The position numbers and the translations under genes were made by a program. Below the pieces are notes generated by a model. The model ran no database searches, was not told where the DNA came from, and saw nothing but the letters and a program-made list of their open reading frames with translations. A DNA stretch of 64,000 bases from a phage: sequence record PZ495249.1. The stretch is one strand, 5' to 3'. Below, piece after piece: positions 2,507 to 63,039 of the stretch. Within the stretch, counting starts at the first letter, position 1, and every line of letters begins with the position of its first letter.

Positions 2507-2552
2507 AGTGCATCCTCTTTGGTGTCGGCATCATTGCCGCCCTATGTGATGA

Positions 2553-2582
2553 ATTATGCGCCCCTCCTGGGCGCTTGTCAAT
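2553..2582 (-). promoter_or_regulatory. sigma70-like promoter TTGACA-N18-CATAAT
   Basis: upstream of ORF 2393..2506; approximate coordinates. Confidence 0.45.
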
Positions 2583-2585
2583 CCC

Positions 2586-3134
2586 TTATTTAAAATAATT
2601 TCGTAGGGCTTGCGCTGCCTCTTCCGGTGTCGGATGATACGGCGTGATCGCGTCCTCTTCCAGGACTACCGGATCAAGCTCCGGCTCTTCCTCCGGCGCG
2701 TTCTCTTCCTCCAGGAGTACAGATCCCGCCAGCTTATCGATCTTGCGCTGCGCCTTGTCTGCTTTCACGTCCAGGACTCGCAAGGCGCTACGATAAAGGC
2801 TCTCAGGCATCTTTCCCGCCTCATATGCTTTTGTAAGCGCTGCCACCTTGCCAGGGTACTCTAACAGCGTTTTAAACGCCGGATCTACCATCAGCAGGGG
2901 ATCGCCTTTCGCGTCATCTGCCGGATCTGCCGCCCCTGCAATGTCTGCCTGTCCATTTGGTAGCCAGCCTGGAACCGTGGCGCGGATCGCCGTGTTCCCG
3001 TTGTTACGCGCTACGCGCTGCCCCACTTGCTCGCCACTGTAGCCGCTTGCGTCATCCAGGAGATCAGGCGGGATCACCCTCCAATCATCCTCGTCATGCT
3101 TAACCCACGATTGAATAACATGCTCACGCCCCAT
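2586..3134 (-). CDS. hypothetical early protein (182 aa)
   Basis: track ORF; GAGGGG upstream of ATG. Confidence 0.6.
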   Translation of the reverse strand: MGREHVIQSWVKHDEDDWRVIPPDLLDDASGYSGEQVGQRVARNNGNTAIRATVPGWLPNGQADIAGAADPADDAKGDPLLMVDPAFKTLLEYPGKVAALTKAYEAGKMPESLYRSALRVLDVKADKAQRKIDKLAGSVLLEEENAPEEEPELDPVVLEEDAITPYHPTPEEAAQALRNYFK

Positions 3135-3137
3135 AGG

Positions 3138-3398
3138 TTAACCCCTCGTTACTAACTCACATACACGGTAAAGGCTCCCCGCATCTTTTGAAGGTAGCCA
3201 CCCGATCCGATACTTCCCGATCTCAACCTTCGTAACGTCCTTTACTTCGGCGTTACGGTGATTAAAGATAGTGTAACCGCCCCCACTCCGCTTGTAAACG
3301 TTTTCTTTAAACGTCATTGCATATCGTGCGAGATCATAGGCTGTTGAATCCATAAAGGCGATAACCTCGCCTTTACAGTTTAGAAACAATGGTTTCAT
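3138..3398 (-). CDS. hypothetical early protein (86 aa)
   Basis: track ORF; GGGGGAA upstream of ATG. Confidence 0.55.
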   Translation of the reverse strand: MKPLFLNCKGEVIAFMDSTAYDLARYAMTFKENVYKRSGGGYTIFNHRNAEVKDVTKVEIGKYRIGWLPSKDAGSLYRVCELVTRG

Positions 3399-36482: not shown

Positions 36483-36488
36483 CATGAG

Positions 36489-36512
36489 AGGGGCGAAAGC
36501 CCCTTTCTCTTG
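36489..36512 (+). terminator. rho-independent terminator
   Basis: AGGGGC-GAAA-GCCCCT stem plus T-rich tail. Confidence 0.55.
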
Positions 36513-47890: not shown

Positions 47891-47928
47891 AAAAATAAAG
47901 GGAGCCTCTTTCGAGGTTCCCTTTTTTA
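47891..47928. terminator. bidirectional terminator at convergence of middle and late blocks
   Basis: 9-bp stem flanked by A-run on one side and T6 on the other; between convergent genes ending at 47886 and 47929. Confidence 0.6.
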
Positions 47929-49080
47929 TTACACAGCATTTACGGATAAGTAGGAGCTATCAGAAGCAACCACCGTACCTTGATATGTGGCAGTACATCC
48001 TATCCTGCACCCGCCATCGCCTACTCCAGTAATAAGACCATTACTATCAACCGTAGCCACTGTAGGATCTGTTGTGGTATAAGTGATAACCATATCTGAT
48101 AACGACGCTGCACCATCTGGTGTTATCGTTGCCACAAGTTGTTGTGTAGTCCCTACACTCATTGCACTCAAGCTTTCAGTGTACACGCTTAATGTAGATG
48201 CATAGCCTCCAGAACTATCAGAGAGCGTTGTTCCAACATTGTTTTTAGCTGTTAAACTTGCATCGAAACCACCTTCACTAACAAACGACATTAGCCCATT
48301 AGTATCAATGGTCATAATAGAAGTATTACTTGAAGCATAAACTTTATCTGTTATTGGTGCTCCGGTTGGAGTAACAGAGTATGTTAATTGTTTCGTGCCT
48401 CCCACTATTGCAATACCGATGGAATCTGTGGTAATGCTTGTGGCTGTCGGTACTATACTGGTCATGATAGTTAGATCGTCTATTTTACCACGCAGCATTA
48501 GCGCGTTATCTGTAGTCCCAGCAATACAGAAGGGATTAGCAGTATTTCCCCCGAAACCCTTAGAAATAGTTAAAACAGATCCGAGAAAGACATTATCTTT
48601 CTTCACATACAAGCTACTCCCTGACTTCGTTATTGTCAGTCGAAACCAAGTATTAACTGGTAGTGCAGCAGTCCCAAAACGAAATCTTTGGACTTCCCCT
48701 GTCGTGCTGTAGCCATCTATACTAACGGATGCGAATACTTGATACGTATTGTTTAAGGTTATCCACCAACTACCAGAACCAGCATTGTTATTCAAGTTAC
48801 CGCATAGAATAGCTTGAGAGGTGTTATCTAAATATAACCATGTGTCTATAAGTAGGTCGGTAGTAGTCCCAACCACAAGACCAGTAGGTAGGCCACCAGA
48901 CGGGTTTGTAACGGTTATTTTACTATTAGATGTTCCACTAAATATGAGCGAACCTTTCCCTGATGCCGAATCTGTAGACTCGGCAACACCTGCACCCAAG
49001 GTAACTACACCGAATTCTTGCAAGCGTTTAACGATGTAGTTTACGTAAGGCTTTCCTCCGGCGAGTAACACTTCAAGCAT
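47929..49080 (-). CDS. tail fibre/adhesin-like protein with Ig-like (Big_2-type) C-terminal domain
   Basis: TTDPTVATVDSNGLITGVGDGG Ig-like motif; Thr/Ser/Gly-rich; first gene of late leftward block. Confidence 0.65.
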   Translation of the reverse strand: MLEVLLAGGKPYVNYIVKRLQEFGVVTLGAGVAESTDSASGKGSLIFSGTSNSKITVTNPSGGLPTGLVVGTTTDLLIDTWLYLDNTSQAILCGNLNNNAGSGSWWITLNNTYQVFASVSIDGYSTTGEVQRFRFGTAALPVNTWFRLTITKSGSSLYVKKDNVFLGSVLTISKGFGGNTANPFCIAGTTDNALMLRGKIDDLTIMTSIVPTATSITTDSIGIAIVGGTKQLTYSVTPTGAPITDKVYASSNTSIMTIDTNGLMSFVSEGGFDASLTAKNNVGTTLSDSSGGYASTLSVYTESLSAMSVGTTQQLVATITPDGAASLSDMVITYTTTDPTVATVDSNGLITGVGDGGCRIGCTATYQGTVVASDSSYLSVNAV

Positions 49081-49089
49081 AAGTTCACC

Positions 49090-49758
49090 TTAACTAATAA
49101 ATGTATTAGGTACAGCAGGTAGATTCTGCTTACTTGTCGCCTCGTATGTTGCTTTCAAGACAGTCAGATAATTTTGTACCACAACACCCCATTGCTTCAT
49201 AGCTTCATCAATTAGGCCAAGGGTATCTGTTTTATTTAGTGGATTTGACACACCTTCTTTCAGATTGATCAGATAAGTATCGGTGGCAGTTCCGCTGGTA
49301 GCAGACGTTTTGATAATATTTAATAGTGCCATACCATCTGCTGTCATTTGCAGGGTGTAATTTTGACCTGCGTATGTAACAGTGATACCTGTGAAACCAT
49401 CTTGAATAAAGATGTTATACAAGTTAGCTGCTTGACCTTGTTTTCTTTGTGCAAGATCTGCTGCGGCTTCTTGTTCATCAAAATCACGTACAACATAAGT
49501 ACGGTAGAATTTACCATCTGCCCCTTGCACTGGAGTGACTTCTGTAATAACATCACCATCAGGAATAGGTGAATCGAAAATCACAGCATAACCAAACTCT
49601 TCAAGAATGTAATCTCGGCAAGGGTATGGATAACTGATGTTAGTGTTAGAAGCACGAATAGCAGGGAAATAAATAGGCCAAGAAAGATCAGCCATATTAA
49701 TTAACGGGGTGTAATCATAAACCAAAGTAAAATCTTCGATTGAAGTAGTTTCTTCCAT
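49090..49758 (-). CDS. hypothetical structural-module protein (222 aa)
   Basis: track ORF; GGAGGA RBS; between two fibre genes. Confidence 0.55.
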   Translation of the reverse strand: MEETTSIEDFTLVYDYTPLINMADLSWPIYFPAIRASNTNISYPYPCRDYILEEFGYAVIFDSPIPDGDVITEVTPVQGADGKFYRTYVVRDFDEQEAAADLAQRKQGQAANLYNIFIQDGFTGITVTYAGQNYTLQMTADGMALLNIIKTSATSGTATDTYLINLKEGVSNPLNKTDTLGLIDEAMKQWGVVVQNYLTVLKATYEATSKQNLPAVPNTFIS

Positions 49759-49770
49759 CGTATTCCTCCG

Positions 49771-49799
49771 AATAAAAGAAGAGGGGATTTCTCCCCTCT
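49771..49799 (-). terminator. rho-independent terminator
   Basis: AGAGGGGA-TTTC-TCCCCTCT hairpin plus U-run on minus strand; after collagen-like fibre gene. Confidence 0.55.
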
Positions 49800-49803
49800 G
49801 TTA

Positions 49804-52296
49804 TTAAGCGTAACCACCTGGTTTGAAACCAAGTAGGCTCGTTCCGTCCCATAACAGACTAACTGTGCAACGTCCAGTGGTGTAGGTTGGAGCCGTTCCA
49901 TCTGTCCAGTTGATTGTGTTAGTCCATGACACTGAACCTGTATTACCAGTGAAGATAACAACAATGGTCATCGCTCTACCCGCTGGTAGGTTAGTAATCG
50001 TTAGGGTTTTGCTTGATGCCAGAGAGACAGTAAACACTTGTCCCTGACTTGCGTCAAGTGTAGCAGTTGCAGTAGATACAGCCAAATCGTAACGATTTAG
50101 ACGAGTCCACACACCACCGCTTTGCATGTAATATCCATCTGTGGTAGGGGCTTTCGCCAGTGTTTCTACCCAAGCTGTATCTTTACGTGCATAAACTTTC
50201 CCATCAGCAGGAGCATCTGAGATTCCTGGAGAAGGAATCGTAAACGCTGTCCAACCACCGTCTTTACGAGCGTACATAGAGCCATCGCTTGGTGCGTCAT
50301 AGACGTTACCACCACCCATGTAACCCATAGAAGCCCAGTTAAGGCTGCTGGTTTTCTGGAAGAACTGTAGTGTTAAGGAGTTTAGGAAGTAGTCGCCTAC
50401 ACGTCCGTCAGCAGGTCCAGGGTTACGCTGCAATACGATCCACAGTGTACCTTGATCACCCTTATCACCTTTCACACCCTGCGCACCTTGCGGTCCCGCT
50501 GGTCCCTGGATATTACCTGCGTTCTGGTATGATCCATTTCCTGAGCTATCTACGTTCCAAACCCAGAAGTTGCCATCAATCAGATAACCTTCACCGATGG
50601 TTCCAGTTGCAGGAAGATCTGCGGTTGAATCAAGTTCACCAAGGATCTTAACCCCTGGTCCCATAGGACCTGGAATACCCTGAATACCTTGTTCCCCTTG
50701 AATACCCTGCTCACCCTGGATACCTTGTGGACCGCTGTTCACGCCCATATCGATCCAAGCTGTACCGCTCCAGATGTATGAACGCTGGTGAATGTAGTAC
50801 ATGTCACCTTGAATGTTACCAGTGGTAGGTAGGTCTGAGGTGTTACTTAGTTCACCCTTCGCATGAATAGAATTACCAGTGGCTCCTGTTGCACCTTGTT
50901 CCCCTTGGATGCCACGAAGAACACCCATATCCACCCAACCTTCACTCTTGTCAAAGTTTAGCGTATAGATGTAAAGATTGCCAGTGTCTTCTAAGCTATA
51001 TGCGCTACCGTATGGAGGCTTAACTGGAAGATCGCTTGCAGATGGTACTTGACCTTTAGCGGTGATTGAGATACCTTGTAGAACACCAGCGTTGAGCCAT
51101 TCACCAGTTCCTGCAACAGGATCTATTGCTACCCAAATATAGATGTATTTATCAGGACCGACTAAGTAAGCTGTACCATAATTAACATCTTCCGGCGGAG
51201 GTAATTGACTTTCGTTATCTACTTCACCTACGATGTTAAGACCTGTACCAGGAACACCTTGGATACCAGGTACACCTTGCTCGCCTTGGATACCTTGTTC
51301 ACCTCTATCTCCTTTATCTCCCTTCAGAGATGCAAGGAAATCGGCTTCGGAACCAAAGTTACCAGCATTAATCCAGATTTGGTAAGCGGAGTCCCCGTCT
51401 TTACCATCTGCACCGTTTGTACCAGCATTACCTTTGTCTCCCTTATCCCCTTTGTCGCCTTTCGGACCGACAATAGCTCCCATGTCCACCCACGCAGTAC
51501 CGTTAGATACGTAGAGGTAGGTTCCATAGCTCCATGCCTGAGATACGTTAGCTGGAGATGGTAGTGGCAGTAGTCCAGGATCAGAGATAGCACCCTGATA
51601 ATCAAATCCGTTAGCGTTTACACCAGGATCACCTTTCTGTCCTTGTGGACTTGGATCACCTTTATCGCCCTTGATGGATTGAACGAAGTCAAGCTCTGTA
51701 CCTGTGTTACCAACGTCTAACCAACTTTGATACGCAGATTTACCTTCCGGTCCCACTTGACCAACAGGCGACCATTGGATACTATCCCATACCCACATTT
51801 GCTCTTGAACAATATATGCATCACCAGGAGAGTTTCCTGTCATAGGTAGGTCGGATACAGAATCAAAGCTTCCTTTGATTACAAGACCACTACCTGTATC
51901 TCCTTTCAGAGAATCAAGCCATTCTTGTTCAGTACCGACGAAGCCATTATCTACCGCAATATCATATGCAGATTTACCAGCTTCTGGAATTTGTGTAGCG
52001 AGGTCGTCGATCTCTTGTTGAATAGTTGTGAACTTGGCATTGATAATAGCAATATCGTCAGCTTTACCAACGTTAACCCAAGTGTTAACACCGATGCCAC
52101 CTGTAGAACCAGGGGTAGAGTTTGCTGGAACGACTTTCGGTAAAGCGCCCTTCCATTGATAGTAGTTACCGTCTGTATCGTACAGTAATACTTCTCTTGC
52201 ATTTGTTAATGTAAAGCCAGCTACAAAGCTTCTACGCTTTCTGTAGGTAGCTTCGACCATATCAGCAATAGCGCTATTAGGTCTTGTTAGAATCAT
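49804..52296 (-). CDS. tail fibre protein with collagen-like Gly-X-Y repeats
   Basis: several Gly-X-Y runs (e.g. GPQGIQGEQGIQGEQGIQGIPGPMGPG, GPKGDKGDKGDKGNAGTNGADGKDG); 830 aa; GAGGAG RBS. Confidence 0.8.
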   Translation of the reverse strand: MILTRPNSAIADMVEATYRKRRSFVAGFTLTNAREVLLYDTDGNYYQWKGALPKVVPANSTPGSTGGIGVNTWVNVGKADDIAIINAKFTTIQQEIDDLATQIPEAGKSAYDIAVDNGFVGTEQEWLDSLKGDTGSGLVIKGSFDSVSDLPMTGNSPGDAYIVQEQMWVWDSIQWSPVGQVGPEGKSAYQSWLDVGNTGTELDFVQSIKGDKGDPSPQGQKGDPGVNANGFDYQGAISDPGLLPLPSPANVSQAWSYGTYLYVSNGTAWVDMGAIVGPKGDKGDKGDKGNAGTNGADGKDGDSAYQIWINAGNFGSEADFLASLKGDKGDRGEQGIQGEQGVPGIQGVPGTGLNIVGEVDNESQLPPPEDVNYGTAYLVGPDKYIYIWVAIDPVAGTGEWLNAGVLQGISITAKGQVPSASDLPVKPPYGSAYSLEDTGNLYIYTLNFDKSEGWVDMGVLRGIQGEQGATGATGNSIHAKGELSNTSDLPTTGNIQGDMYYIHQRSYIWSGTAWIDMGVNSGPQGIQGEQGIQGEQGIQGIPGPMGPGVKILGELDSTADLPATGTIGEGYLIDGNFWVWNVDSSGNGSYQNAGNIQGPAGPQGAQGVKGDKGDQGTLWIVLQRNPGPADGRVGDYFLNSLTLQFFQKTSSLNWASMGYMGGGNVYDAPSDGSMYARKDGGWTAFTIPSPGISDAPADGKVYARKDTAWVETLAKAPTTDGYYMQSGGVWTRLNRYDLAVSTATATLDASQGQVFTVSLASSKTLTITNLPAGRAMTIVVIFTGNTGSVSWTNTINWTDGTAPTYTTGRCTVSLLWDGTSLLGFKPGGYA

Positions 52297-52329
52297 TTAT
52301 TACTCCTCGTTCGATTATTAAACGGTAGC

Positions 52330-52360
52330 ATAGAAATTAAAGAGGGGATTTCTCCCCTCT
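52330..52360 (-). terminator. rho-independent terminator (same hairpin as 49780..49799)
   Basis: identical AGAGGGGATTTCTCCCCTCT hairpin; after tailspike gene. Confidence 0.55.
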
Positions 52361-52362
52361 AT

Positions 52363-55300
52363 TTACGTCGTTGGTACATCGTTTGGAGTTGGACGAATTA
52401 CCGCAGTGTTACCCACTGAAACATTACTTGCGTCGTTAGGAACAGTTTTAATTCTAATTCCAGCCGCAGTAGCTGTTTGAATAGGATCGGCAATATCAAT
52501 CTTGACAGGGTTTGTCCACAGGTCATTATCTTGATATGGTGCGCGGGTAATTACAGTATCGAGATCTGCACCACCTGCACCTGCCCCAGGAATACGGATA
52601 CGTGTTCCGGCTGATAATGGGTAATGGTATAACCAAGAAGCGTTTGTCGCCGTTCCATTTGGTACTAAGTTCTGAGCCAGTGATTTATCGCCAACAGTTG
52701 TTGCACGAATTCCGAATGCTGCAATATCTGGGATATATGCACCACTTGTCGTAACAAGGAAGAACGTGTTATCTGCTTTAACGATCATGTCACCTTTATC
52801 AAACTCTTTCCCAGTTGGGAAGTGCAGACCATCAATGTTTCTGCTTGGGTTAGCTTCCAGGTAATAAACCTTTCCGGTAGAACCAAGAAGAGCACCAATT
52901 CCGCCAGCGATGTTGGTATACATGTTGGCTTCAACGTTACAGTTGACACGGTGAATGTCAGAGTAACGGCAACGGCTCCATGCTGGACGACCACTAACCA
53001 TTGTGTTACCATTTGGGTAGCAGTTTACGTTAACCATTTCAAGAACAGATTTCTCGCGACGGAAGAATCCATCGTAGAATGTACCTGGTCCTGACTCTGG
53101 TTGACCAACACACTCGAAGCTGTTACAAGTGATGTTTGACATTGACAGCCAAGAAGCAATACCGAATAGCTGTAGTGCAGCACAACGGATGTTCTCGAAG
53201 CTCACACGGTTTTCAAATCCTGGTCCTGCTGAAACACCTGCGAACACACGCCCTGTGCGGGTATGAACGTTCTTAACAGAGTAGTTGAAGCAAGGGTTTG
53301 AAGGTCTACCTTGTGGTGGCTGAACTGGTTGTCCATCCGGTCCCAATACTGGGTTAGTACCCCACTCCAAGTAAATCAGACGGATATTACTTGCTGGAGT
53401 GTTAGCATCAGTTTTAGGTTCACCGTAAACACCGTCAATCGTGAAGTCTTTGCTTCCGTACATTACCACTGCACCTGTTGCTAAACCAGTACCTGTCGAA
53501 ACAGTCTGATCAGGATCACCGTGGATGTTCTCAATAGTAATGTTACGTCCAACTTCTACGTGAACAATTTGACGACAACGTTTTGCAAACACGTTGCGGA
53601 TTGTGATATTCTTACAGTATTGACTGTCTGGGATATCGTAACCATATGGTCCCTGTCCTGCCACACCGATACCGATACCCCAGTTGGAGTTAGCGATAGG
53701 AGCGTTTGTACCGTCAATGTTAGACAGATAGATGTTCTCGATCACACAACCATCATCATAGTGTTTACTGATAACGTTAAGTTCGATAGCATCACCTTGC
53801 ATATCCATGAAGGTAAGGTTGCGGAATACACCACGAGTTACAGGCTCACCAGTACCTTGTTGAAGAATACCGTATAAACCGTTTTTGAAGGTACAGTTGT
53901 CAATCTCGAATGTACCCGTGATTGGGTTGCCCTGGAATACCAGGCTACCAACTTGTCCTGCGCGTGGCGCACCGTCCCACAGGCAGTCGTAGATACGAAC
54001 TGCACCACCCCAATACATAACGCGAGCGTTACGGAAGGTTACACCTTCTAAGGTAGCATTTTGTAAACGATAGTCACGTTGACCACGGAATACACCACCT
54101 TTCAGCGTGATACCAGTGATATCAAAGCTGCTTGTAGTGAAAGTCATGTCACACCCGTAGGCGTTCAACACTTTCCCTTTGCTGTTAGCAGTTGCTGTCA
54201 GAGCCGCCTGGAAAGCTGCTTCTGGTGTGGTGTATTTTGAATTGTTCGCAAACTCAGACAAGTAAACAACGTCGAACAGATCGTTGAATACACCACCGTG
54301 TGGTGTTAGAAGCGCTTCTGTGTTCGTCAGAACCCAAGTGGTAGGGCTAACCCCTCCGCTGCTTTCTAAAGTGTCTGTAGCTGAAATTGTCTTAGGTAGA
54401 GTACCAGCCCAACGATAACGACCTGAACCCATACCGATAGTTTGGTTCTTGATAGTTAAAGTAGCTGCGTTACCGAAGCTCGTTGGCAGGTGAACAAATT
54501 GTCCACGTTCAACAGCCAGTGCAGCAAGGTCAACTGTACCACCTGAGTAAGTTAACACACCTGTTGCAGAAAGGCTACCGAAGTTACCGCTAATACCTAC
54601 TGGTAGAGTGTACGCTGCTTGGGTTGTAGGATCGTAAAGAGCCTTAATCCCTGTTAGAGACTGCCCTGTTTGTGCTAAACCAACTTCTGCATCTTTCAGA
54701 CCGAACTTACGTGCCACAATCTGTGTTGGAACTTTACTCATCTGAGTCGTCAGATCAGAAGTAGTAGTTTCCAGTGCAGTAACACGGTTTGCCAGGTTAG
54801 GATCGTTATCTGCGGCAGCTACAATTTTACCAATGTACGCAAACAGTTTGTTAGGTAGTCCAGTAGCAGGATCTAAACCAAGAGGTTCAGAAAGAATGAT
54901 CTTGCTGTCCTGAATAGTATACGCATCACCAACAATCTGCACAACCCCGTTGATAGTTACGATAGCACTATCAAACACGTATGGAGGGCTGATAACTTTC
55001 TCATAACCTGTTGCGCCAGTGTACAACCAAGGGTATACTTCGTTAGCAAGCTGTTCAGTTTTCATAGCCCAGAGAACCCAGTTATTATCTCCTACTGGAG
55101 TCCCTTGCATAGGGATTGGGTTAGCGGTTGTCGCTGTTGGAGCGTAGTAATACCCACTCAGAATCCCATTCTGGAAGAAACGGAGTTGGTTAAATACTGT
55201 TTCATTAGTACCTGCCGCCCAAGCGACAGGGCTTTTGAAATAGAAGTTATCAAGCAACGCTTTACGCAGCGTAGGAATTAAACCTGTTTCAGTTTCAACC

Positions 55301-55407
55301 GTAGCTGTCGCAGCACCGTTAATAACATCGTGCAACTGGTTAGAAGAGAAAATAACCAGGTCAACACCCTGATCGAGTGTTGTAGCAGGATATGTTGGAA
55401 ATGCCAT
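52363..55407 (-). CDS. tailspike / receptor-binding protein with parallel beta-helix-like repeats (candidate depolymerase)
   Basis: 1014 aa; repeated N.T..N pattern (NCTFKNG, NITIRNV, NITIENI) typical of pectate-lyase-like beta-helices. Confidence 0.7.
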   Translation of the reverse strand: MAFPTYPATTLDQGVDLVIFSSNQLHDVINGAATATVETETGLIPTLRKALLDNFYFKSPVAWAAGTNETVFNQLRFFQNGILSGYYYAPTATTANPIPMQGTPVGDNNWVLWAMKTEQLANEVYPWLYTGATGYEKVISPPYVFDSAIVTINGVVQIVGDAYTIQDSKIILSEPLGLDPATGLPNKLFAYIGKIVAAADNDPNLANRVTALETTTSDLTTQMSKVPTQIVARKFGLKDAEVGLAQTGQSLTGIKALYDPTTQAAYTLPVGISGNFGSLSATGVLTYSGGTVDLAALAVERGQFVHLPTSFGNAATLTIKNQTIGMGSGRYRWAGTLPKTISATDTLESSGGVSPTTWVLTNTEALLTPHGGVFNDLFDVVYLSEFANNSKYTTPEAAFQAALTATANSKGKVLNAYGCDMTFTTSSFDITGITLKGGVFRGQRDYRLQNATLEGVTFRNARVMYWGGAVRIYDCLWDGAPRAGQVGSLVFQGNPITGTFEIDNCTFKNGLYGILQQGTGEPVTRGVFRNLTFMDMQGDAIELNVISKHYDDGCVIENIYLSNIDGTNAPIANSNWGIGIGVAGQGPYGYDIPDSQYCKNITIRNVFAKRCRQIVHVEVGRNITIENIHGDPDQTVSTGTGLATGAVVMYGSKDFTIDGVYGEPKTDANTPASNIRLIYLEWGTNPVLGPDGQPVQPPQGRPSNPCFNYSVKNVHTRTGRVFAGVSAGPGFENRVSFENIRCAALQLFGIASWLSMSNITCNSFECVGQPESGPGTFYDGFFRREKSVLEMVNVNCYPNGNTMVSGRPAWSRCRYSDIHRVNCNVEANMYTNIAGGIGALLGSTGKVYYLEANPSRNIDGLHFPTGKEFDKGDMIVKADNTFFLVTTSGAYIPDIAAFGIRATTVGDKSLAQNLVPNGTATNASWLYHYPLSAGTRIRIPGAGAGGADLDTVITRAPYQDNDLWTNPVKIDIADPIQTATAAGIRIKTVPNDASNVSVGNTAVIRPTPNDVPTT

Positions 55408-55748
55408 TAATTTTTGTCCTTACTTTGTGTGCGTTTAGTTATTTCCTCTAACATCATCTGGATAGTCGCATTCTTGAGATCCATAATCTTTTCGATTTTC
55501 TGTTCAAGAGCGGTATTGTTTGCCATCAGAGTAGAGTTTATCTGGTTCAGCATCTGAGCAAGTTCGGCTTTCGTTGCGTAAGTTGATTCGACAAAGACGA
55601 GTTTCTTTTCTAATTCTCGATACTTGTCTTCAACTTCTTCTAAATCCGATGACATGTCATCAACTTTCTGTTTGAAGAAGAACCAGATAACACCAATTAA
55701 AGGGAGTATCGTTTCCTTTGCGATATCCCATAGTTCGGTAATTTGCAT
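55407..55748 (-). CDS. hypothetical protein with N-terminal hydrophobic helix (113 aa)
   Basis: track ORF; AAGGAG RBS; ATGA-type overlap with tailspike start. Confidence 0.5.
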   Translation of the reverse strand: MQITELWDIAKETILPLIGVIWFFFKQKVDDMSSDLEEVEDKYRELEKKLVFVESTYATKAELAQMLNQINSTLMANNTALEQKIEKIMDLKNATIQMMLEEITKRTQSKDKN

Positions 55749-55757
55749 GTGATCTCC

Positions 55758-56303
55758 TTATTTGGTTGGCAGGATAGGCCATTCAATATTAGTTGGATAG
55801 CCCTCTTGCGAAGTCACACGGCTTAGATATACCAAGTAACGTTGCAATTCTTTTAAGTAGGCAGCTTCTTCGTCAGTCATCATATCCAACTCTTTAGCCG
55901 CCTGTAACGGAGCCATAAGTTGAGAGACTTCGTTTTGTAATGTATCTGCTTTACTTTTTGCATTTGCAATCAGTTCTTCACGAGTTGGTATACGATCTTT
56001 TATTTTCCCTGTTCGAAGATCAAACACCTTGTTTTTGAAATCATCAATGACACCATCTAAATCAATATCGGCAATGCAAGCATTGATAGGCCACAAGCCA
56101 GATACATCCTTGGAGACGGATGTAATTACCCCAGACTGTTTATCGAAAACAATTTTCAGCTTATCATTATCAAACAAACGCTGGCATTCGTACCAATCTA
56201 CACCTTCTTGACTTTTCAGAAAAATGACGTTTAAAGTTTTCTGTAACTCCAGCTTGTCTTTATCTTCTGGGTTGTAAATTTTAAAATTTGTTAAAATAGT
56301 CAT
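55758..56303 (-). CDS. tail fibre assembly chaperone-like protein
   Basis: track ORF 55758..56327 trimmed to Met overlapping fibre stop (TAATG); Tfa-like C-terminus; sits immediately downstream of a fibre gene. Confidence 0.6.
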   Translation of the reverse strand: MTILTNFKIYNPEDKDKLELQKTLNVIFLKSQEGVDWYECQRLFDNDKLKIVFDKQSGVITSVSKDVSGLWPINACIADIDLDGVIDDFKNKVFDLRTGKIKDRIPTREELIANAKSKADTLQNEVSQLMAPLQAAKELDMMTDEEAAYLKELQRYLVYLSRVTSQEGYPTNIEWPILPTK

Positions 56304-57358
56304 TATAATTGTCCCACCGTGTACCAATTTCCGTTAACATTCTTCTGGACAGGTTTGAAATATAATGTATCCCCGCCAGGGTTTTCACCCTCGAAGTAAT
56401 AACCCATTACAAAACCGCCACCATCTGCTAAGACAGCCTGATTGTGTTTAATAATCTTCGTGTACGTCGCGCCTAAGCGGATATCTATAACACAGTTAGC
56501 AAGAGTCCAGTTCCAGTTGTTAGAGATCTGCCCTTGCAGGTAGTCCTGTACGTTAGTAATACGGTTGTTAACTGCACCAATCTGAGAGTTGATGTAGTTA
56601 GTTAGGTTGGTATTAACGTTGTTGATGTTGTTTTGCAACGTCGTCTGTAACGTGTTTAAACGTGAGTTTAAATAGTCTAAACGAACAAGCGCATTCTGGT
56701 TCACTGTATCCTGTGCATCGTTTGTACGAGGACTTGTCAGGGTAACATAACCACCATCCCACATAGTAACAACAGCAGTTTGAGCACCGTTTGCAGGGTT
56801 AATACGTGCCATTGATAAATAACCACCACCCGCATAAGTGGATGAGAAGTTACCATTAGTCTGACCAGCGAAATTCTGAAAGAAGATCGTTGCAGCATCT
56901 GTTGTGCTTGTACCACAGACATAAATATCACCGCCCCAAATACCACCATTACCATCTCGCTTAACTAATACGTTAGGAGTGACAACATTACTTGTAGCAT
57001 CTGAGATATTCGCTGATAAGTGGTTGTGACTGTTATCTACCACCTGAATTGAAAGAGTAACCTCTTTGTTACCATTCCAAGTTACAGAACCCGTGGCATC
57101 ACCAGCCATTGTAATCTTAGTACCAACAAGCGGAAGATAGGTGTTTGGTAACGTTGGCATGAAGTCATCTACGATGTAGTGAATCCATAATCCAAGGTTA
57201 TTCAGCAGCCAGTTTAATTCTTCGCAAGTCATAATTTGACCGAAGTCCATACCCACTGTGCGGATAGTTTCTTTCGGTCTAATCTTGTTTGTGTTCCCTG
57301 TCCCTGGAAGCGTTACTGTTTGTGTCGCCCAATCAGGGTAGTATGTTGGCTTAGCCAT
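56303..57358 (-). CDS. tail fibre protein (351 aa)
   Basis: Asn-rich coiled segment NNINNVNTNLTNYINSQIGAVNNRITNVQ; AAGGAG RBS; followed by chaperone gene. Confidence 0.6.
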   Translation of the reverse strand: MAKPTYYPDWATQTVTLPGTGNTNKIRPKETIRTVGMDFGQIMTCEELNWLLNNLGLWIHYIVDDFMPTLPNTYLPLVGTKITMAGDATGSVTWNGNKEVTLSIQVVDNSHNHLSANISDATSNVVTPNVLVKRDGNGGIWGGDIYVCGTSTTDAATIFFQNFAGQTNGNFSSTYAGGGYLSMARINPANGAQTAVVTMWDGGYVTLTSPRTNDAQDTVNQNALVRLDYLNSRLNTLQTTLQNNINNVNTNLTNYINSQIGAVNNRITNVQDYLQGQISNNWNWTLANCVIDIRLGATYTKIIKHNQAVLADGGGFVMGYYFEGENPGGDTLYFKPVQKNVNGNWYTVGQL

Positions 57359-57367
57359 TTAAACTCC

Positions 57368-57997
57368 TTACTCTATTTGCGCTATTAGCATACACATGCG
57401 TCCAGTTTCTTCTCCGGTAGATTCCATGTATAGGGAACCCAGGCCACCAATCCCATGAGGGGGCTTAGTCGCGTAATAGGAAGTGAAACCGAAAGCCGAT
57501 CCAGACTTCGCTCCTAAACGGTAGCTACTTAAAATTGGGAAAACGTTAAGCAGTTGCGCAATAGCCTGATCAGATTGCAGACACAAGTTATAAAAGAATA
57601 CGTCGAAGGTTTTGTTTAACCCAACGTATGTGTTAATCGTAGATCTATCTGTACCTGTGAAACGAGCGAAAATATCAATAATGTCGCCTCGTGTACCAGA
57701 GGATGCAACACGATATGCCCTGATTTTTAAAATCGTTCTATACTCTTCATCGTCAGAACCATTTCGTTCGATCCCCATTTCTTCACCGATGATATCGAGA
57801 TATTCACCTGTAGCAGTGGAGATCAAACGGTGTTTAGCAAGATAGATCATTGCCTGATCTATCTTTTGCTTTTCACTTGAAATGACGTAAAGGAGCTTGA
57901 CAATGTTTTCAGAAGATTTAAAATCTTCAATCAGGAGGTTTTTAACATCTTCATTGATATTATCCCAAGTCGTTACATGGTCAACACTCACTGCCAT
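57368..57997 (-). CDS. baseplate protein (P2 gpI-like position)
   Basis: track ORF; called from position next to the gpJ-like gene, in P2-like J-I-H-G order. Confidence 0.5.
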   Translation of the reverse strand: MAVSVDHVTTWDNINEDVKNLLIEDFKSSENIVKLLYVISSEKQKIDQAMIYLAKHRLISTATGEYLDIIGEEMGIERNGSDDEEYRTILKIRAYRVASSGTRGDIIDIFARFTGTDRSTINTYVGLNKTFDVFFYNLCLQSDQAIAQLLNVFPILSSYRLGAKSGSAFGFTSYYATKPPHGIGGLGSLYMESTGEETGRMCMLIAQIE

Positions 57998-57999
57998 TT

Positions 58000-59487
58000 T
58001 TAGACTCCGTATTCGTATGAAATGTTTTCAAGGTCGAATGATGGTACAACGTTGTACGCAGGAACGATATCGCTCTCAGTGTATTTACTGTCATCCTCAG
58101 TATTAAGTTTAACATAAACACGCAGAGAAGTCAAGCGTCCAAACGCCAGAGCGGAATAAATTACCCCTTTAATCTGGTCGTTAGTAACAGTTGAACCTAA
58201 TTCGAAGTAAGCTTGCAGGTCAGAGAGAGCCTTGACAATGTTTTCTCTTTCTGTCGTACTTAGAGTAGAACCGTTAGCACTCTGATAAACCAGTTTCAGA
58301 GAGTAAACTTGGCTATCACCTGGAGAGAAACGAATAATCTCTTGACCACCGTCTTCCGTTGTGATAGTAATAGCTGTAGTCCCATAAGTCAGGGTGTTGA
58401 TTGGCTTAGTGTCATAAATAACTTTAGCCACTTCCTCAGCGTTACCACCGAATACGATAGTTTGGAAAGTAAAGGCTGGTGCATATGTCTGATCGTGCAG
58501 TGTCGGGTTATCATAAATCTTAACCTTAGTTACACCGTCAGTTAACAGCAGAGCTTTGACAATCGCAGCACGAGTAGCAGCATTTGCTTCATCAAGGTTG
58601 TCATTGAAACGTGAACGGAATTCCGCATCGGTTTCAACATCACGACCTGGGGAGAATGCATAGAAGTTACCAGTGTCTAAGTAACCCGCAAATGTTGAAG
58701 AGATACCAGTGATACTCTCCACGCCAACAGGGTTATATCCAGCCTCTGCACCAACGACAGGAATTTCACTCCACTTAATTCCGATAGGAATGGAAGCGTA
58801 GAATTTCATTGGAGTAACAAGCCCAACGGGATTAACGTTATCTGAGGTATTAAAACCTACGTATACGTTGCTTGAATCGTTCCATACAAGGTTTCTATCC
58901 GTGATAGATACGTTTGCCTTAATGAAATTCATTAAGTCTGTAATGAACGTTGTAGAGTTCGGATTTAGCGTTTTACTGTTCAGACCACCATCACTTGCGT
59001 TCTGCATGTAGAATGTAATAGCGTTTACACCAGATCCTGTTGCGTTAGCCTTGGAAATAGTGTATGCTCCAATCTTAGCATTAAGCATGGTAGGAGTGCT
59101 GACGTAATATGTCAAGTCGTTATCTGCATTGAAATAGGTTTCTGTGCCTAATTCATAAGTCCAAGCAGCTTTGTTGTTTGTCTTAACGTAAGCATAACCA
59201 CTACCAGCAGATGCACCTTGGCGGTAGAAACCACGTTTAGAGAAAATCTCGTCGAGGTAAATACCTTCTGCGCCATCTAAGGTTTGCGTGTTATAGACAC
59301 CCTGCATACCTTCCCACAATGTGTAGTCGGTGTATGCAACAATGCGGAACAACTGCCCGAAAACCGTATCTTCGGAAGTTGCAGTGTCTGCCCCGAAAGT
59401 GTTTTTCAGGGAAGTCATGTAGTTATTCAGAATGTCATCGAATGTCGGGATTACAAATCCCGCATCTGTTAGGCCATAATCTGCCAT
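58000..59487 (-). CDS. baseplate wedge protein (gpJ-like)
   Basis: 495 aa; AAGGAGGA RBS; position between spike/wedge genes and fibre genes. Confidence 0.55.
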   Translation of the reverse strand: MADYGLTDAGFVIPTFDDILNNYMTSLKNTFGADTATSEDTVFGQLFRIVAYTDYTLWEGMQGVYNTQTLDGAEGIYLDEIFSKRGFYRQGASAGSGYAYVKTNNKAAWTYELGTETYFNADNDLTYYVSTPTMLNAKIGAYTISKANATGSGVNAITFYMQNASDGGLNSKTLNPNSTTFITDLMNFIKANVSITDRNLVWNDSSNVYVGFNTSDNVNPVGLVTPMKFYASIPIGIKWSEIPVVGAEAGYNPVGVESITGISSTFAGYLDTGNFYAFSPGRDVETDAEFRSRFNDNLDEANAATRAAIVKALLLTDGVTKVKIYDNPTLHDQTYAPAFTFQTIVFGGNAEEVAKVIYDTKPINTLTYGTTAITITTEDGGQEIIRFSPGDSQVYSLKLVYQSANGSTLSTTERENIVKALSDLQAYFELGSTVTNDQIKGVIYSALAFGRLTSLRVYVKLNTEDDSKYTESDIVPAYNVVPSFDLENISYEYGV

Positions 59488-59735
59488 TAATCTTCCTCCT
59501 TCTTATCAGGGGCAGGTGTTCTGCCCCAACGTAGATCGATCAGATTCTTCATTAAGCGTGAAGGTGTGATCATGAAAACGAAAGCCCAACCCATCCACTC
59601 AGGGATCTCTTTTTCGATCCCTAAGAAGATGAACATTCCTGTCATGGTAAGCATTCCGACTGCGTTCCACACTTTGGTAGAACTAACTTTGCTGTTTGGA
59701 TAAGTACAAAACATTCCGATTAAAAATTTCTTCAT
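59487..59735 (-). CDS. small membrane-like protein (82 aa)
   Basis: track ORF; ATGA overlap; hydrophobic segments. Confidence 0.45.
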   Translation of the reverse strand: MKKFLIGMFCTYPNSKVSSTKVWNAVGMLTMTGMFIFLGIEKEIPEWMGWAFVFMITPSRLMKNLIDLRWGRTPAPDKKEED

Positions 59736-62566
59736 TGGTTTTTTCTCAAGTCAATGCCAATATCTGGTAGGCTTGACTGCGGATTCAGTTCACGGTAAAG
59801 TGCATACAGACCGAAGCCACGTAGCAATTCACCTGCGTGGAAACCGAAGAACATGCCGTTGTCCGTATTGGCGCGAGGTGCAACACTCCAGCTTCCGTTC
59901 ATTGGATGATTAGGAGTCAGAATGATGTAATTTTCTTGGATCAGTTCGAAGCAACGATCAGCCACAATACCGATGTTAGGAATTTGATTTTCCAGACCAG
60001 CAAGACCAACATAAGAACATCCAGCCATCCACAACGCTGACATGTGACTTGTGAAGTCATCAATAGGTGCAAGCACTGTTCCATCTGGGTTAAAGATGGT
60101 TGGTGTACGTCCATCATTATGATCCTGGAACCATTTCAGGTAATCAACCCAGTTCTTAACAACTGTCAGTAGTTTAGGTGGAATAGGCTCGTTACGAGCT
60201 TTTAGTTCGTGCAGACAACGTGCAGCACAATAGAATGCGCGAGCTTCGTATCCATCCCAAGCTTTCTCGTTCCAGTGTTTCATTGTGAACTCATTGGTGT
60301 CACCGTATTTCTTAGCATCCCAACGATCCCATACGAATGCTTGAGCCATAGGACCAGGCATTACAGGATTGAATGTTGTGTAGAACCATTGTTGAGCGTC
60401 ATAAAGGAAGTTGATACTTTCATTCAGACGTGTATAATCAATGTTCTGACCTTTGAAGCAATACAGAGTAGGGTACTGGTATCCTGGGTATGGAAGTCCA
60501 CGCCATCCATCAAACAAAGCCGTATTAGGGTCACTGATGTTGGAGAACGGGATAATACCAGGTGTGTAGTACAAACTGTTTAGCTTATAGTCGATGATTA
60601 CACAATCACCAAGTTTGGCATTGTACGGATTGCTTCCCTGTACCGTGATACGGAAATACATGGTATAATCATCACCACTCGTAGAGGAGTAGGTGGTAGG
60701 TACGTCATTAACGCAATACCAATCAATTTTACCATTTACACCGTTCACTGGATCTGTATCCAGCACCAGGTTGATTTGATCTACATGGCTTAAATCAATA
60801 ACAGATGGTTTAGGATCTGTCTCTGGGTGGTTAGGCTGATAAGCACTTAATTTGAAGCTTGCTGGAGTTAGGTTTAATGTAGACCATGCACCACCAGTTT
60901 TCGGAACCATAGCCCACCATCTCCATCCGGCAGCATCTGTAATCGTGATATTAAAATCATCGTTGTAAGATCTGTACGATAGAGACTTTAAGTTTGTTGT
61001 CTCAGCATCAAGTAACCAGAAACCGATAGTGATACCACCATCGCCATCCATTGTTGCACTGCAAATCTGATCACTAATTCCTGATAGAATGTTAGTAGTA
61101 TACTGGAATTGTACCACAGTATTATCACCCCAGTCAACAACAATTCGTGGATCTGCAATAATATATTGACCACCACCAGGAGGAGTTGAACGGACGAAGT
61201 TATATAGCGGAATATCCATTGACTGAATCGCTGTTGTACCTAATGGCAAACCACAACGATACTCAACTAAATCATTCTCAGTTTTTGATTTACTCAGTGA
61301 TAATTCAGGGCGGAACAGCAGACCATTACCTGCATCATCTACACCGGAGAATTGAACACGGAGTTTAGAATTCTGATCTACACGGAACCAGATTGCTTGT
61401 TGTTCCAGTGTAGTTTGTGCAGCCACATTCTGACGAATTGTGATATAACCCTTTGAGTCACGTCCATATACCGGAGTAGCATCTGAGGGGTATGTGTAAT
61501 CATAACTGATACCGTCAGTAAATGGAATAGCTGCCATTGTTGATTTACGGAAGAATTTATCAAAACGGTCAATATCTGAATAGTCGATACATACCATTAA
61601 TGAAGACTGCCAGCAAAGCCAGTATTTTCTTTCTCCAGTAATTTTATACATGATGTAGTTAACATCGCACCACCATGTCTCAGCATCCGAGGCATTGTCT
61701 GCGAAGTCAAGAGAAATAGGAACGTTCACAGGACGGTTATGCCACATTTCATTACGTCCCATTAAATATCCACCTTTATCCACCGGATTGCAAGTTGCGT
61801 AATTGAACTTGTGGTTTCCATTTAATGTTGTGTTCTTTAACTGAACTGTTCCATATTCGGCAACAGAATACCCTTCTTGGATAATATTTCCGTCCCAATC
61901 CACTTTACGTCCCAGGCGGTCGATAATCCAATCCACATCATATTGCTGTCCCTTAGCATCCCAGTTTGTTGATCCGTCAGCGTTAGCAGCATATACTGTT
62001 GCGTTAACAGAATTCCAACCTAAGTTACCGTCGAAAGCGAACCATGCTTTGTCCAGATATTCACCCCAATGCGGAGCACCGTGAGGAATAACAGTACGCC
62101 CGTTTGTCCATGTCATCATGCTTCCTTTGAAGCCACCATGAGTAGGATATCCGTCATCGGTTAACGGGTAGTGTGCCAGGCGCGGTTCTTTCCCGTTAAT
62201 GATCCAGTTAGGACGATATTTAGCCGGAGGATCAGGAATAGGTTGACCACCGAAGAAGTGATCAATATAGGCTTGCCAGTATTTCTTAGCAGAGTCTAAA
62301 TATTTCTTATCCCCCGTAGCAAGATATGCATAGGCACATCCAAGAATCAGCACTGATTGACCTTCGGTAGTAGCGTCACCATTTGGCTGACCTTCTTGAC
62401 CTGTCCAGTTAATAAAGTGTCTGTTGTTCGCTAATACGAATTGTGGGTTGAATACGTAGTGTTGAACTGTAGGATCAATAGTCAAACCCGTATTACGATC
62501 AAGGAACTGAATATGTCCCTCAATCAATTGAAAAGCATTGTCAATATTGTGCTGTGTTCTTGACAT
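59732..62566 (-). CDS. large baseplate-associated structural protein (944 aa)
   Basis: track ORF; AGGAG RBS; Trp/Tyr/Asn-rich; embedded in baseplate cluster. Confidence 0.65.
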   Translation of the reverse strand: MSRTQHNIDNAFQLIEGHIQFLDRNTGLTIDPTVQHYVFNPQFVLANNRHFINWTGQEGQPNGDATTEGQSVLILGCAYAYLATGDKKYLDSAKKYWQAYIDHFFGGQPIPDPPAKYRPNWIINGKEPRLAHYPLTDDGYPTHGGFKGSMMTWTNGRTVIPHGAPHWGEYLDKAWFAFDGNLGWNSVNATVYAANADGSTNWDAKGQQYDVDWIIDRLGRKVDWDGNIIQEGYSVAEYGTVQLKNTTLNGNHKFNYATCNPVDKGGYLMGRNEMWHNRPVNVPISLDFADNASDAETWWCDVNYIMYKITGERKYWLCWQSSLMVCIDYSDIDRFDKFFRKSTMAAIPFTDGISYDYTYPSDATPVYGRDSKGYITIRQNVAAQTTLEQQAIWFRVDQNSKLRVQFSGVDDAGNGLLFRPELSLSKSKTENDLVEYRCGLPLGTTAIQSMDIPLYNFVRSTPPGGGQYIIADPRIVVDWGDNTVVQFQYTTNILSGISDQICSATMDGDGGITIGFWLLDAETTNLKSLSYRSYNDDFNITITDAAGWRWWAMVPKTGGAWSTLNLTPASFKLSAYQPNHPETDPKPSVIDLSHVDQINLVLDTDPVNGVNGKIDWYCVNDVPTTYSSTSGDDYTMYFRITVQGSNPYNAKLGDCVIIDYKLNSLYYTPGIIPFSNISDPNTALFDGWRGLPYPGYQYPTLYCFKGQNIDYTRLNESINFLYDAQQWFYTTFNPVMPGPMAQAFVWDRWDAKKYGDTNEFTMKHWNEKAWDGYEARAFYCAARCLHELKARNEPIPPKLLTVVKNWVDYLKWFQDHNDGRTPTIFNPDGTVLAPIDDFTSHMSALWMAGCSYVGLAGLENQIPNIGIVADRCFELIQENYIILTPNHPMNGSWSVAPRANTDNGMFFGFHAGELLRGFGLYALYRELNPQSSLPDIGIDLRKNQ

Positions 62567-63039
62567 TAAATAACTCCTGCTGTCGCTAACTTACCTGTCC
62601 AGGTAGCGCCGTTGTCATAGCTGGTGAACTCGAAAGTGTCAACAGCCCCTTGTGCATAACTCAACACCGGATCACGTCCATAGCTCCACTTGACAGAAGG
62701 AGGCCATGATACTAAATTAGCACCACTGCCTTGTTTCAATGCCAATACAAACGTCTGAACCACGTTCGTAGTTACAGGAATGTTTGTGAAGCTGATTGTA
62801 CATGTTGAGGATGATAGTGTGGCAGTGAAATAGTCTGCCGTGTTTAAGTCTAAAGATAAAGCACTACCTACTGTTCCTCTTACAGAGAGGCGGTTACGCA
62901 CCACCCCTCCTCCGGCAAGAAGAACTTTCAAGGCAGTTTTCTTAGTGATACCCGCTTGGTCAGTAATGAAGAAATCATTATCTCCTACTGACGTTGTTTG
63001 GGAAAGATCACTAACCTTGATTGTTGTTAGATCTGCCAT
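62566..63039 (-). CDS. virion structural protein (157 aa)
   Basis: track ORF; ATGA overlap with downstream gene. Confidence 0.55.
   Translation of the reverse strand: MADLTTIKVSDLSQTTSVGDNDFFITDQAGITKKTALKVLLAGGGVVRNRLSVRGTVGSALSLDLNTADYFTATLSSSTCTISFTNIPVTTNVVQTFVLALKQGSGANLVSWPPSVKWSYGRDPVLSYAQGAVDTFEFTSYDNGATWTGKLATAGVI

Follow-up and report, generated by a model that had tools for sequence, protein, structure and literature searches.

A probable phi92-type multivalent adsorption locus in the phage sequence PZ495249.1

Gene content and transcription of the locus

A stretch of 64,000 nucleotides from the phage sequence record PZ495249.1, hereafter the window, was analysed with respect to a block of predicted fibre and tailspike genes at positions 47929-57358. 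The initial annotation had described this block as four receptor-binding-type proteins lying ahead of the baseplate genes: an Ig-like-domain fibre, a collagen-like fibre, a beta-helix tailspike, and an Asn-rich coiled fibre with its own assembly chaperone. All four proteins are encoded where they had been placed, and the ends of the outermost open reading frames (ORFs) coincide exactly with the limits of the block (47929..49080 and 56303..57358). The five genes named are present, but the count was short, as the block contains 7 ORFs and the genes for a 222-residue and a 113-residue protein had been omitted. The features are as follows, in the order of transcription.

56303..57358, minus strand: short tail fibre of 351 residues, phi92 gp147/"fibre III" type, by homology and a match to PDB 9CUY
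55935..56517, minus strand: exchangeable cassette of ~580 bp, fibre tip plus N-terminal domain of the chaperone, by comparison with positions 2540-3150 of metagenomic contig L003
55758..56303, minus strand: tail fibre assembly chaperone of 181 residues, Caudo_TAP, in the position of phi92 gp148 (PF02413; phrog_136, E=7e-47)
55407..55748, minus strand: protein of 113 residues, combining a transmembrane helix at its N-terminus with a long coiled coil, homologue of phi92 gp149 (86% identity)
52363..55407, minus strand: tailspike of 1014 residues, with an anchor (10-154), CBA120-TSP-type N-terminal domains (228-366) and a colanidase-type right-handed beta-helix (423-1000)
52341..52360, minus strand: terminator-like hairpin AGAGGGGAGAAATCCCCTCT between the tailspike and collagen-fibre genes
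49804..52296, minus strand: collagen-like fibre of 830 residues, with Tail_spike_N (residues 11-77), Gly-X-Y runs, foldon-like hairpins and a C-terminal domain
49780..49799, minus strand: identical copy of the hairpin, between the collagen-fibre gene and the gene of the 222-residue protein
49090..49758, minus strand: DUF4376-like protein of 222 residues, by predicted-fold match and adjacency to the collagen-fibre gene
47929..49080, minus strand: protein of 383 residues with a probable LamG/ConA-like domain (residues ~13-209) and two Big_2 Ig-like domains (residues 210-383)
47897..47924, no strand: hairpin whose 12-bp stem is bordered by runs of A and T, between convergent genes 42 bp apart

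The 7 ORFs are co-directional on the minus strand and are spaced by at most 9 bases or overlap by 1 base, except at two gaps of 45 and 66 bases. Transcription passes from the 351-residue fibre through the chaperone and the proteins of 113, 1014, 830 and 222 residues to the protein of 383 residues. Directly upstream, on the same strand, are genes for proteins of 209, 495, 82, 944 and 157 residues. Because minus-strand transcription runs from the baseplate genes toward position 47929, the block is located downstream of the baseplate genes, on the side opposite to that first assumed. It is the distal end of a late baseplate/fibre operon. The hairpin at 47897..47924 is probably a bidirectional terminator that closes the operon. 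Sigma-70-like promoter matches did not exceed the chance level.

The two identical copies of AGAGGGGAGAAATCCCCTCT form a 20-nt hairpin with a GAAA tetraloop, each followed by a T-rich tail; the number of matches expected by chance is 0.01. These paired hairpins may act as attenuating terminators or RNA-stability elements, or may mark recombination boundaries of fibre cassettes. A related copy with 3 mismatches is present in another module (36487-36506, plus strand).

Fibres, tailspike and helper proteins

The 351-residue fibre shows 60% identity to phi92 gp147 and 62% to phAPEC8 gp91, and matches the tail fibre family phrog_4465 (E=6e-78). It consists of a conserved N-terminal wedge-docking joint, a coiled coil at residues 216-285 and a variable C-terminal tip (~279-351). 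The coiled coil contains 25.7% Asn in a heptad-like pattern, in agreement with the initial description. Residues 8-71 correspond to positions 9-72 of the phiTE short tail fibre (PDB 9CUY chain c, E=3e-12), the very segment that the model of that structure places as a globular joint upon wedge protein 1 (PMC11972413). In the cryo-electron microscopy (cryo-EM) study of phi92, gp147 was fitted as fibre III, which is suspended from the bottom of gp145 and rearranges upon contraction. Identity to gp147 is 95% at the N-terminus and 17-29% at the tip.

The chaperone gene directly follows the fibre gene and overlaps its stop by 1 base. Its assignment to Caudo_TAP is well supported in Pfam (60.6 bits against a cut-off of 22.1, E=2e-16), as had been expected for an assembly chaperone of this fibre. 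Mechanical ORF calling places the start at a TTG at 56327 (189 residues); the start is most likely the ATG at 56303 (181 residues), the equivalent of which begins the gene in contig L003. According to Maffei et al., this fibre/chaperone pair is homologous to GpS/GpU of Mu, and the terminal receptor of the group is in the lipopolysaccharide (LPS) core.

A near-identical locus (~97% DNA identity) was found on the 153.7-kb metagenomic contig L003 and on shorter contigs. Positions 55935-56517 are the only stretch without megablast similarity to L003. In windows of 40 columns, the two fibre proteins are 95-100% identical up to residue ~278 and 32-47% identical thereafter, except that the final ~15 residues (QKNVNGxWYTVGQL) stay conserved across the replacement. 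The chaperones diverge in their N-terminal two-thirds and are nearly identical in the C-terminal ~60 residues. On this comparison, the tip-plus-chaperone segment is a classic host-range cassette, and such allelic exchange of the fibre tip between near-identical genomes suggests host-range selection at the locus. The arrangement resembles that of S/U in Mu and H/G in P2, in which a short fibre gene is likewise followed by a Caudo_TAP chaperone gene and the tip and chaperone N-domain are exchanged jointly. An invertible segment or alternative tip genes, as in that comparison, were not seen in the window. The swap is a clean natural example that should be useful for host-range engineering, although no concept is changed by it.

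The 1014-residue protein is the beta-helix tailspike recognized at the outset: its residues 423-1000 align by phmmer to the crystal structure of phi92 gp150 (PDB 6E0V, E=2.5e-82). Over its full length of 1014 residues it is 84% identical to phAPEC8 gp88, and it matches phrog_6117 (E=1e-266). The N-terminal anchor shows 68.5% identity to residues 4-254 of phi92 gp150 and carries a precomputed PF26208 assignment on an identical metagenomic protein. Within it, residues 10-154 correspond to positions 14-160 of the long tail fibre of phiTE, which is chain g of PDB 9CUY (E=9e-19). Residues 117-224 gave weak matches only, to chains of other tail fibres, depolymerases and tail adaptors (E 4e-4 to 0.015), and residues 228-366 match the N-terminal domains of CBA120 TSP1, TSP3 and TSP4 (E=1e-22 to 1e-29). 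Identity to phi92 is 82-93% at residues 1-120 and 10-57% beyond residue 200. Since gp150 has been shown biochemically to be a colanic-acid hydrolase, the protein can be read as a tailspike of the gp150 type and a predicted colanidase.

The collagen-like nature of the 830-residue fibre is clear from Pfam (Collagen, 40.3 bits against 27.2, E=3e-10) and from five Gly-X-Y runs with 39 triplets in total, each run being uninterrupted and 5-9 triplets long. A trimerisation element accompanies these runs, as expected of a fibre of this kind: three foldon-like hairpins (DAPxDGxxYxRKDxxW) are located at residues ~661-734. Fibritin_C reached 27.6 bits against 21 when summed over the three motifs, none of which is significant singly. 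Read by eye, the protein also contains three 'SAY...GF.GTE..W/F' modules and several knob-like modules of ~40 residues between the Gly-X-Y runs. Its beta-sandwich-like C-terminal domain aligns with the 157-residue gp140 homologue encoded upstream (30% identity, pairwise E=5e-4). In the phi92 paper, gp140 and gp151 were grouped by fold, resembling the "head spike" gp52 of phage Pa223.

The fibre combines two sources. Residues 1-475 are 56-59% identical to phi92 gp151 and phAPEC8 gp87, and residues 107-825 are 43% identical to residues 335-1094 of phiTE_215. Relative to phi92, identity is 75-80% at residues 1-80 and 0-20% over most of the distal region. By these alignments, the protein is a mosaic with a gp151-type proximal part and a phiTE_215-type distal part. 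Tail_spike_N (PF18668) was detected at residues 11-77 with E=1e-19. In solved spikes, a separate anchor of 100-150 residues precedes PF18668. In the 830-residue fibre only about 16 residues precede it, and so short a lead would, by analogy, fit docking onto another fibre.

In phiTE, CB7 and PVP-SE1, a homologue of the 222-residue protein is invariably encoded after the homologous fibre gene of the collagen type, and the adjacency is kept in four phage lineages; no homologue turned up in the fibre loci of phi92 and phAPEC8 or among the tblastn matches listed. In PVP-SE1 (L013, 7659-7913), the fibre and partner are followed by an 84-residue protein with a phi29 head-fibre domain (PF11133), in place of which phiTE (phiTE_217; L012, 12629-13123) and CB7 have a virion structural protein. 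This arrangement hints at a head or neck fibre in these three phages, as opposed to one of the baseplate.

The predicted fold of the 222-residue protein is confident (mean pLDDT confidence 92.9) and has no close neighbour in the PDB. In a Foldseek search of BFVD it matches proteins named DUF4376 (TM 0.80, E=5.5e-22) and, next, entries named "tail assembly chaperone". By sequence, neither PF14301 for the protein itself nor a PDB search gave a useful match, and a relationship of the family to the Caudo_TAP chaperone was tried with hhalign and rejected. In Alteromonas phage V22, experiments showed gp27, which has a C-terminal DUF4376 domain, to be a required chaperone of the tail fibre; a role as a transient "cap" was proposed later. 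The V22 gp26/gp27 pair is alike in that a ~200-residue protein with a predicted fold matching DUF4376 is encoded right after the fibre gene, and in that the pair moves horizontally between unrelated phages. It differs in that sequence similarity to PF14301 is marginal here, and the CB7 homologue stays in the virion: mass spectrometry of purified CB7 virions detected both the fibre CB7_10 and its partner CB7_11 (7 peptides, 30% coverage). The modelled fold and the gene order indicate that the 222-residue protein is probably a chaperone or tip "cap" of the collagen-like fibre. The block would then contain two fibre-plus-helper pairs, not one.

A more specific history is tentative and rather doubtful, namely that the collagen fibre acquired its distal two-thirds, along with the partner, from a head-neck fibre of the Certrevirus/Seunavirus type, grafted onto a docking end of the baseplate locus, and that the partner, instead of being a transient chaperone, is retained on the virion as a cap or adhesin in the manner of T2 gp38. 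If it is true, there would be a two-protein receptor-binding tip on a collagen shaft, and distal fibre modules would be interchangeable between attachment sites on the virion.

For the 383-residue protein, the Ig-like domains first reported were recovered (Big_2, 48.8 bits against 22.8, E=7e-13), but the label of fibre is not borne out; no trimerisation or shaft element is present. Structure prediction by AlphaFold2, suggested earlier as a check, returned an all-beta Ig fold with pLDDT >95 for residues 210-383 and performed poorly for the N-terminal half (45-78). The model matches generic tandem-Ig proteins in the PDB at TM ~0.2. The Ig module, made up of the last 174 residues, shows 70% identity to phi92 gp152 and 68% to residues 413-584 of phAPEC8 gp86; in relatives it is located at either end of the protein, joined to RCC1-type and other domains. 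Homologues of the N-terminal half carry precomputed PF13385 assignments, and some stand alone. These stand-alone LamG homologues occur in tandem arrays with LamG paralogues and with RCC1/WD40 and Kelch beta-propeller proteins of 220-385 residues, in phage-like contigs from GCA_013565735.1 (L009) and from the Logan assemblies SRR25434965 and SRR25434956 (L010, L011). The arrays suggest large families of putative binding modules that can replace one another.

Relatives and the predicted adsorption apparatus

The closest relatives were sought by megablast with 24 kb of the window as query. The best matches, mostly coliphages of Phapecoctavirus (phAPEC8-like) and Justusliebigvirus (phi92-like), showed ~75-76% identity across just 41-46% of the query. 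Such coverage falls short of the genus threshold of at least 70% nucleotide identity genome-wide for Phapecoctavirus and Justusliebigvirus, a rule that, to the extent that 24 kb can tell, leaves the phage outside both and any other listed genus. It is best read as a myovirus related to the Stephanstirmvirinae (phi92, phAPEC8). In gene-by-gene tblastn and blastp comparisons, the locus is syntenic with phi92 gp140-gp152 and phAPEC8 gp86-gp98, at protein identities of 60-90%. The shared order runs from gp140-gp141 through the wedge genes gp145/gp146, the short fibre, the chaperone, gp149, the tailspike and the collagen fibre to the Ig protein. The "Wecvirus" phage phiWec187 is no closer to the locus than phi92.

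Gene order and the principle of several co-encoded fibres and spikes are thus shared with phi92, and the differences concern individual modules. The endosialidase arm of phi92 (gp142/gp143) has no homologue here, and the 944-residue gene leads straight into the 82-residue gp144 homologue; as this arm varies within the phi92 group, its absence does not exclude membership. The tailspike has an additional TSP-type N-domain insert of 200 residues, the collagen fibre has a Certrevirus-type distal half and the 222-residue partner that phi92 lacks, and the chaperone is only 24% identical. The Ig module, which stands alone before gp153 in phi92, is fused to a LamG domain. With phAPEC8, the conserved part is about 75% identical in DNA, and phAPEC8 is the nearest cultured relative for the tailspike. 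It has two additional genes, gp95 (a putative endosialidase) and gp96, and is without the 222-residue gene; it carries the 891-residue gp86 where the 383-residue protein is located here, and its gp87 shows, at the distal end, no sequence relationship to the 830-residue fibre.

In the tailspike, short fibre and collagen fibre alike, identity to phi92 is high at the N-terminal docking end (75-95%) and falls distally (0-50%). Given the tip-plus-chaperone cassette and the mosaic collagen fibre, the alignments indicate conservation of the docking parts at the N-terminus and recombinational exchange of the distal ones. The locus has its own set of modules: no endosialidase arm, a colanidase spike of the phAPEC8 type, a borrowed distal collagen half with its partner, and a LamG-Ig fusion. 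Of these features, the mosaic collagen fibre with a DUF4376-like partner whose homologue is virion-associated, the LamG-Ig fusion and the anchor homologies are modestly new.

From these homologies, the locus would be a multivalent adsorption apparatus of the phi92 type, encoded in the distal half of the late baseplate/fibre operon, with a probability of roughly 0.8. The earlier proposal of several adhesins for several glycans or receptors is upheld by homology and synteny with phi92 and phAPEC8; the figure of four fibres is not, as the 383-residue protein is not demonstrably one. A branched arrangement, suggested along with it, is conjectural for this phage. In phi92, three co-expressed fibre sets were seen together on the virion by cryo-EM, and the co-expressed tailspikes and fibres of phi92-, phAPEC8- and rV5-like phages have been described as a "nanosized Swiss army knife" (PMC8594841, PMC11984140). 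A multi-adhesin tail is therefore a known hallmark of such phages and not a new inference.

Homology to wedge-bound fibres indicates that the 351-residue and 1014-residue proteins dock directly on the wedge. The short fibre would do so by its N-terminal joint, pointing down, like the phiTE short tail fibre and phi92 fibre III. The tailspike would dock on the wedge and sheath initiator by its N-terminal helical-bundle domain, like the phiTE long tail fibre (PMC11972413). Data on phi92, phiTE and BASEL phages suggest that the tailspike clears exopolysaccharide of the colanic-acid type, and that the short fibre, folded by Caudo_TAP, binds the terminal receptor, probably the LPS core, and passes the trigger to the wedge. 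The collagen fibre, folded or capped by the 222-residue protein, and the LamG-Ig protein may add further contacts, probably with glycans. The gp141-type protein of 944 residues, encoded just upstream and outside the block, is a candidate for a fifth adhesin.

Several points weigh against this model. The phage is known here from its sequence alone. In phi92, cryo-EM could not match fibre II, which branches from the base of fibre I, to any gene product; the fits of gp150 and gp151 to its density were poor. The tailspike beta-helix is only ~35% identical to that of gp150, and its WcaM-like assignment by NCBIfam (E=7.5e-26) scores far under the equivalog cut-off. The link of the 222-residue protein to DUF4376 is a similarity of predicted structures, and by sequence just 1 of 22 family members matches PF14301 (E=0.019). 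The LamG domain (PF13385, Laminin_G_3) of the 383-residue protein reaches 25.5 bits against a cut-off of 27.6 (E=1.7e-5), in the half that was poorly modelled.

A different role for the 383-residue protein is a serious minority option: it may serve as a decoration or accessory protein that binds carbohydrate weakly, or be no virion component, rather than a receptor-binding fibre. A shaft, coiled coil, beta-helix or trimerisation motif is absent from it, as is a separate anchor segment. Similarity to stand-alone LamG homologues begins at residue ~13, and the Ig module reaches the last residue. Its Ig module is paired with quite different domains in relatives and is a stand-alone protein of 202 residues in phi92. 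Phage Ig-like domains are generally seen as accessory and weakly glycan-binding, at least as Fraser et al. (2006) are cited in PMC7344957. However, the gene is the last of the fibre operon, before the terminator, and its homologues have been labelled tail protein, lateral tail fibre or tail carbohydrate esterase. Among PDB folds, the best match is SraP, a lectin-on-stalk adhesin, although with a low TM-score (0.25). If the protein is not a fibre, the block contains three fibres instead of four.

It is also conceivable, but improbable, that the 830-residue protein is a neck- or head-attached fibre of the whisker or head-fibre type, serving reversible adhesion or environmental sensing with the 222-residue protein as its partner. 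This explanation is raised for the distal module by the genomic position of its relatives, as a gene pair homologous to its distal 700 residues and to the partner is located between the major capsid and neck genes in phiTE, CB7 and PVP-SE1, and in PVP-SE1 this pair adjoins the Phage_head_fibr gene. The foldon-like motifs, as in T4 fibritin, and the likening of gp140 and gp151 to the Pa223 head spike point the same way. The proximal part argues for the baseplate: residues 1-475, with the presumed docking end, resemble gp151 and gp87 from baseplate-fibre operons, and the N-terminal domain is the tailspike-type PF18668 that the neighbouring tailspike also contains. Moreover, the phiTE authors count the homologue of the 830-residue fibre as the third member of the baseplate fibre network (PMC11972413).

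A further alternative concerns function more than anatomy. The apparatus could be multivalent in structure and effectively monovalent per host, with a conserved glycan-binding fibre and the short fibre deciding infection and the spikes clearing optional capsule or exopolysaccharide. Maffei et al. found that all tested Vequintavirinae and phi92-like phages need wecB and the LPS core, and argued that they would be 'effectively monovalent on E. coli K-12'. Such a mode of action leaves the anatomy uncontradicted. Against it, the allelic exchange of the fibre tip suggests selection on host range here, and phi92-like phages showed the broadest lysis host range in the same study; we regard it as possible, though not likely.

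Two better-known systems help to place the predicted phi92-type apparatus. In the Certrevirus phiTE, the modelled parts of the short and long tail fibres (PDB 9CUY) are homologous to the N-terminal joints of the 351-residue and 1014-residue proteins, and phiTE_215/216 to the distal collagen fibre and its partner. Unlike the present case, phiTE is flagellotropic, its long tail fibre is a long beta-helical fibre and not a colanidase, and its collagen-type fibre gene is in the head-neck module and has another N-terminus. TSP1-4 of CBA120 and the Ackermannviridae share the TSP N-terminal PF18668 (residues 228-366 of the tailspike and 22-80 of the collagen fibre) and the presence of several spikes per baseplate. 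In contrast, their baseplate is of another type, and two proteins here would dock directly on the wedge. XD/T4-gp10-like branching domains of the CBA120 type were not detected in these proteins; as only the PF18668 N-domain is common, the locus is not a complex of the CBA120 type.

The phi92/phAPEC8 group is studied for its broad host range and as a source of polysaccharide-degrading enzymes. The N-terminal homologies to wedge-bound phiTE fibres may help to assign fibre II of phi92.

Upstream genes and minor features

The genes upstream of the block complete the part of the operon that is syntenic with phi92.

57368..59487, minus strand: wedge proteins forming the docking platform, 495 residues (Baseplate_J, phi92 gp145) and 209 residues (DUF2612/Phage_Wedge1, phi92 gp146), by Pfam
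59487..59735, minus strand: predicted membrane protein of 82 residues, phi92 gp144 homologue (81% identity), between the 944-residue and wedge genes
59732..62566, minus strand: conserved tail protein of 944 residues, phi92 gp141/rV5 gp42 type (80% identity to phi92 gp141)
62566..63039, minus strand: phi92 gp140 homologue of 157 residues, annotated 'tail fiber protein' (73% identity to gp140), sharing its type of C-terminal domain with the 830-residue fibre

The wedge proteins are 87% (gp145) and 88.5% (gp146) identical to those of phi92, and their roles are taken from the phi92 cryo-EM study. Among the small membrane proteins, the 113-residue gp149 homologue bears the label of lipoprotein in PHROG, which is wrong because the protein has zero cysteines; a spanin was considered as well, and an embedded o-spanin-like ORF with a lipobox was not found in its gene. 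The 82-residue protein is a second small membrane protein conserved within this virion-structure operon.

In the 944-residue protein, no domain was found by Pfam, NCBIfam or PDB sequence search. Its rV5 counterpart, gp42, was detected in virion proteomics and, judging from coordinates, appears to lie at the position of the lateral fibre of Maffei et al. These authors described a conserved lateral fibre with a sugar-deacetylase domain, related to a fibre of phage N4 and linked to recognition of the enterobacterial common antigen (ECA); a later note from the same group named the "NGR glycan" instead of ECA. Phage records with a full-length homologue number 521; they cover several genome types and sizes of 42-352 kb. 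Identity is 30-80%, and this horizontal spread is unusually wide for a large tail protein. The carriers include phi92-, rV5- and PVP-SE1-like phages of ~140-150 kb and phages of 240-350 kb (SPFM11, phAPEC6), as well as Salmonella phages of ~53 kb, Erwinia phages of 84 kb, and the vB_CsaP-named Cronobacter phages Ss1 and GAP52 of 42 and 77 kb.

Over the whole 64-kb window, no tRNA genes and no Rfam families above the gathering score were detected, and no notable tandem repeats were found. The coding strand switches at ~11 kb and at 47.9 kb, and the latter switch coincides with a change in GC skew.

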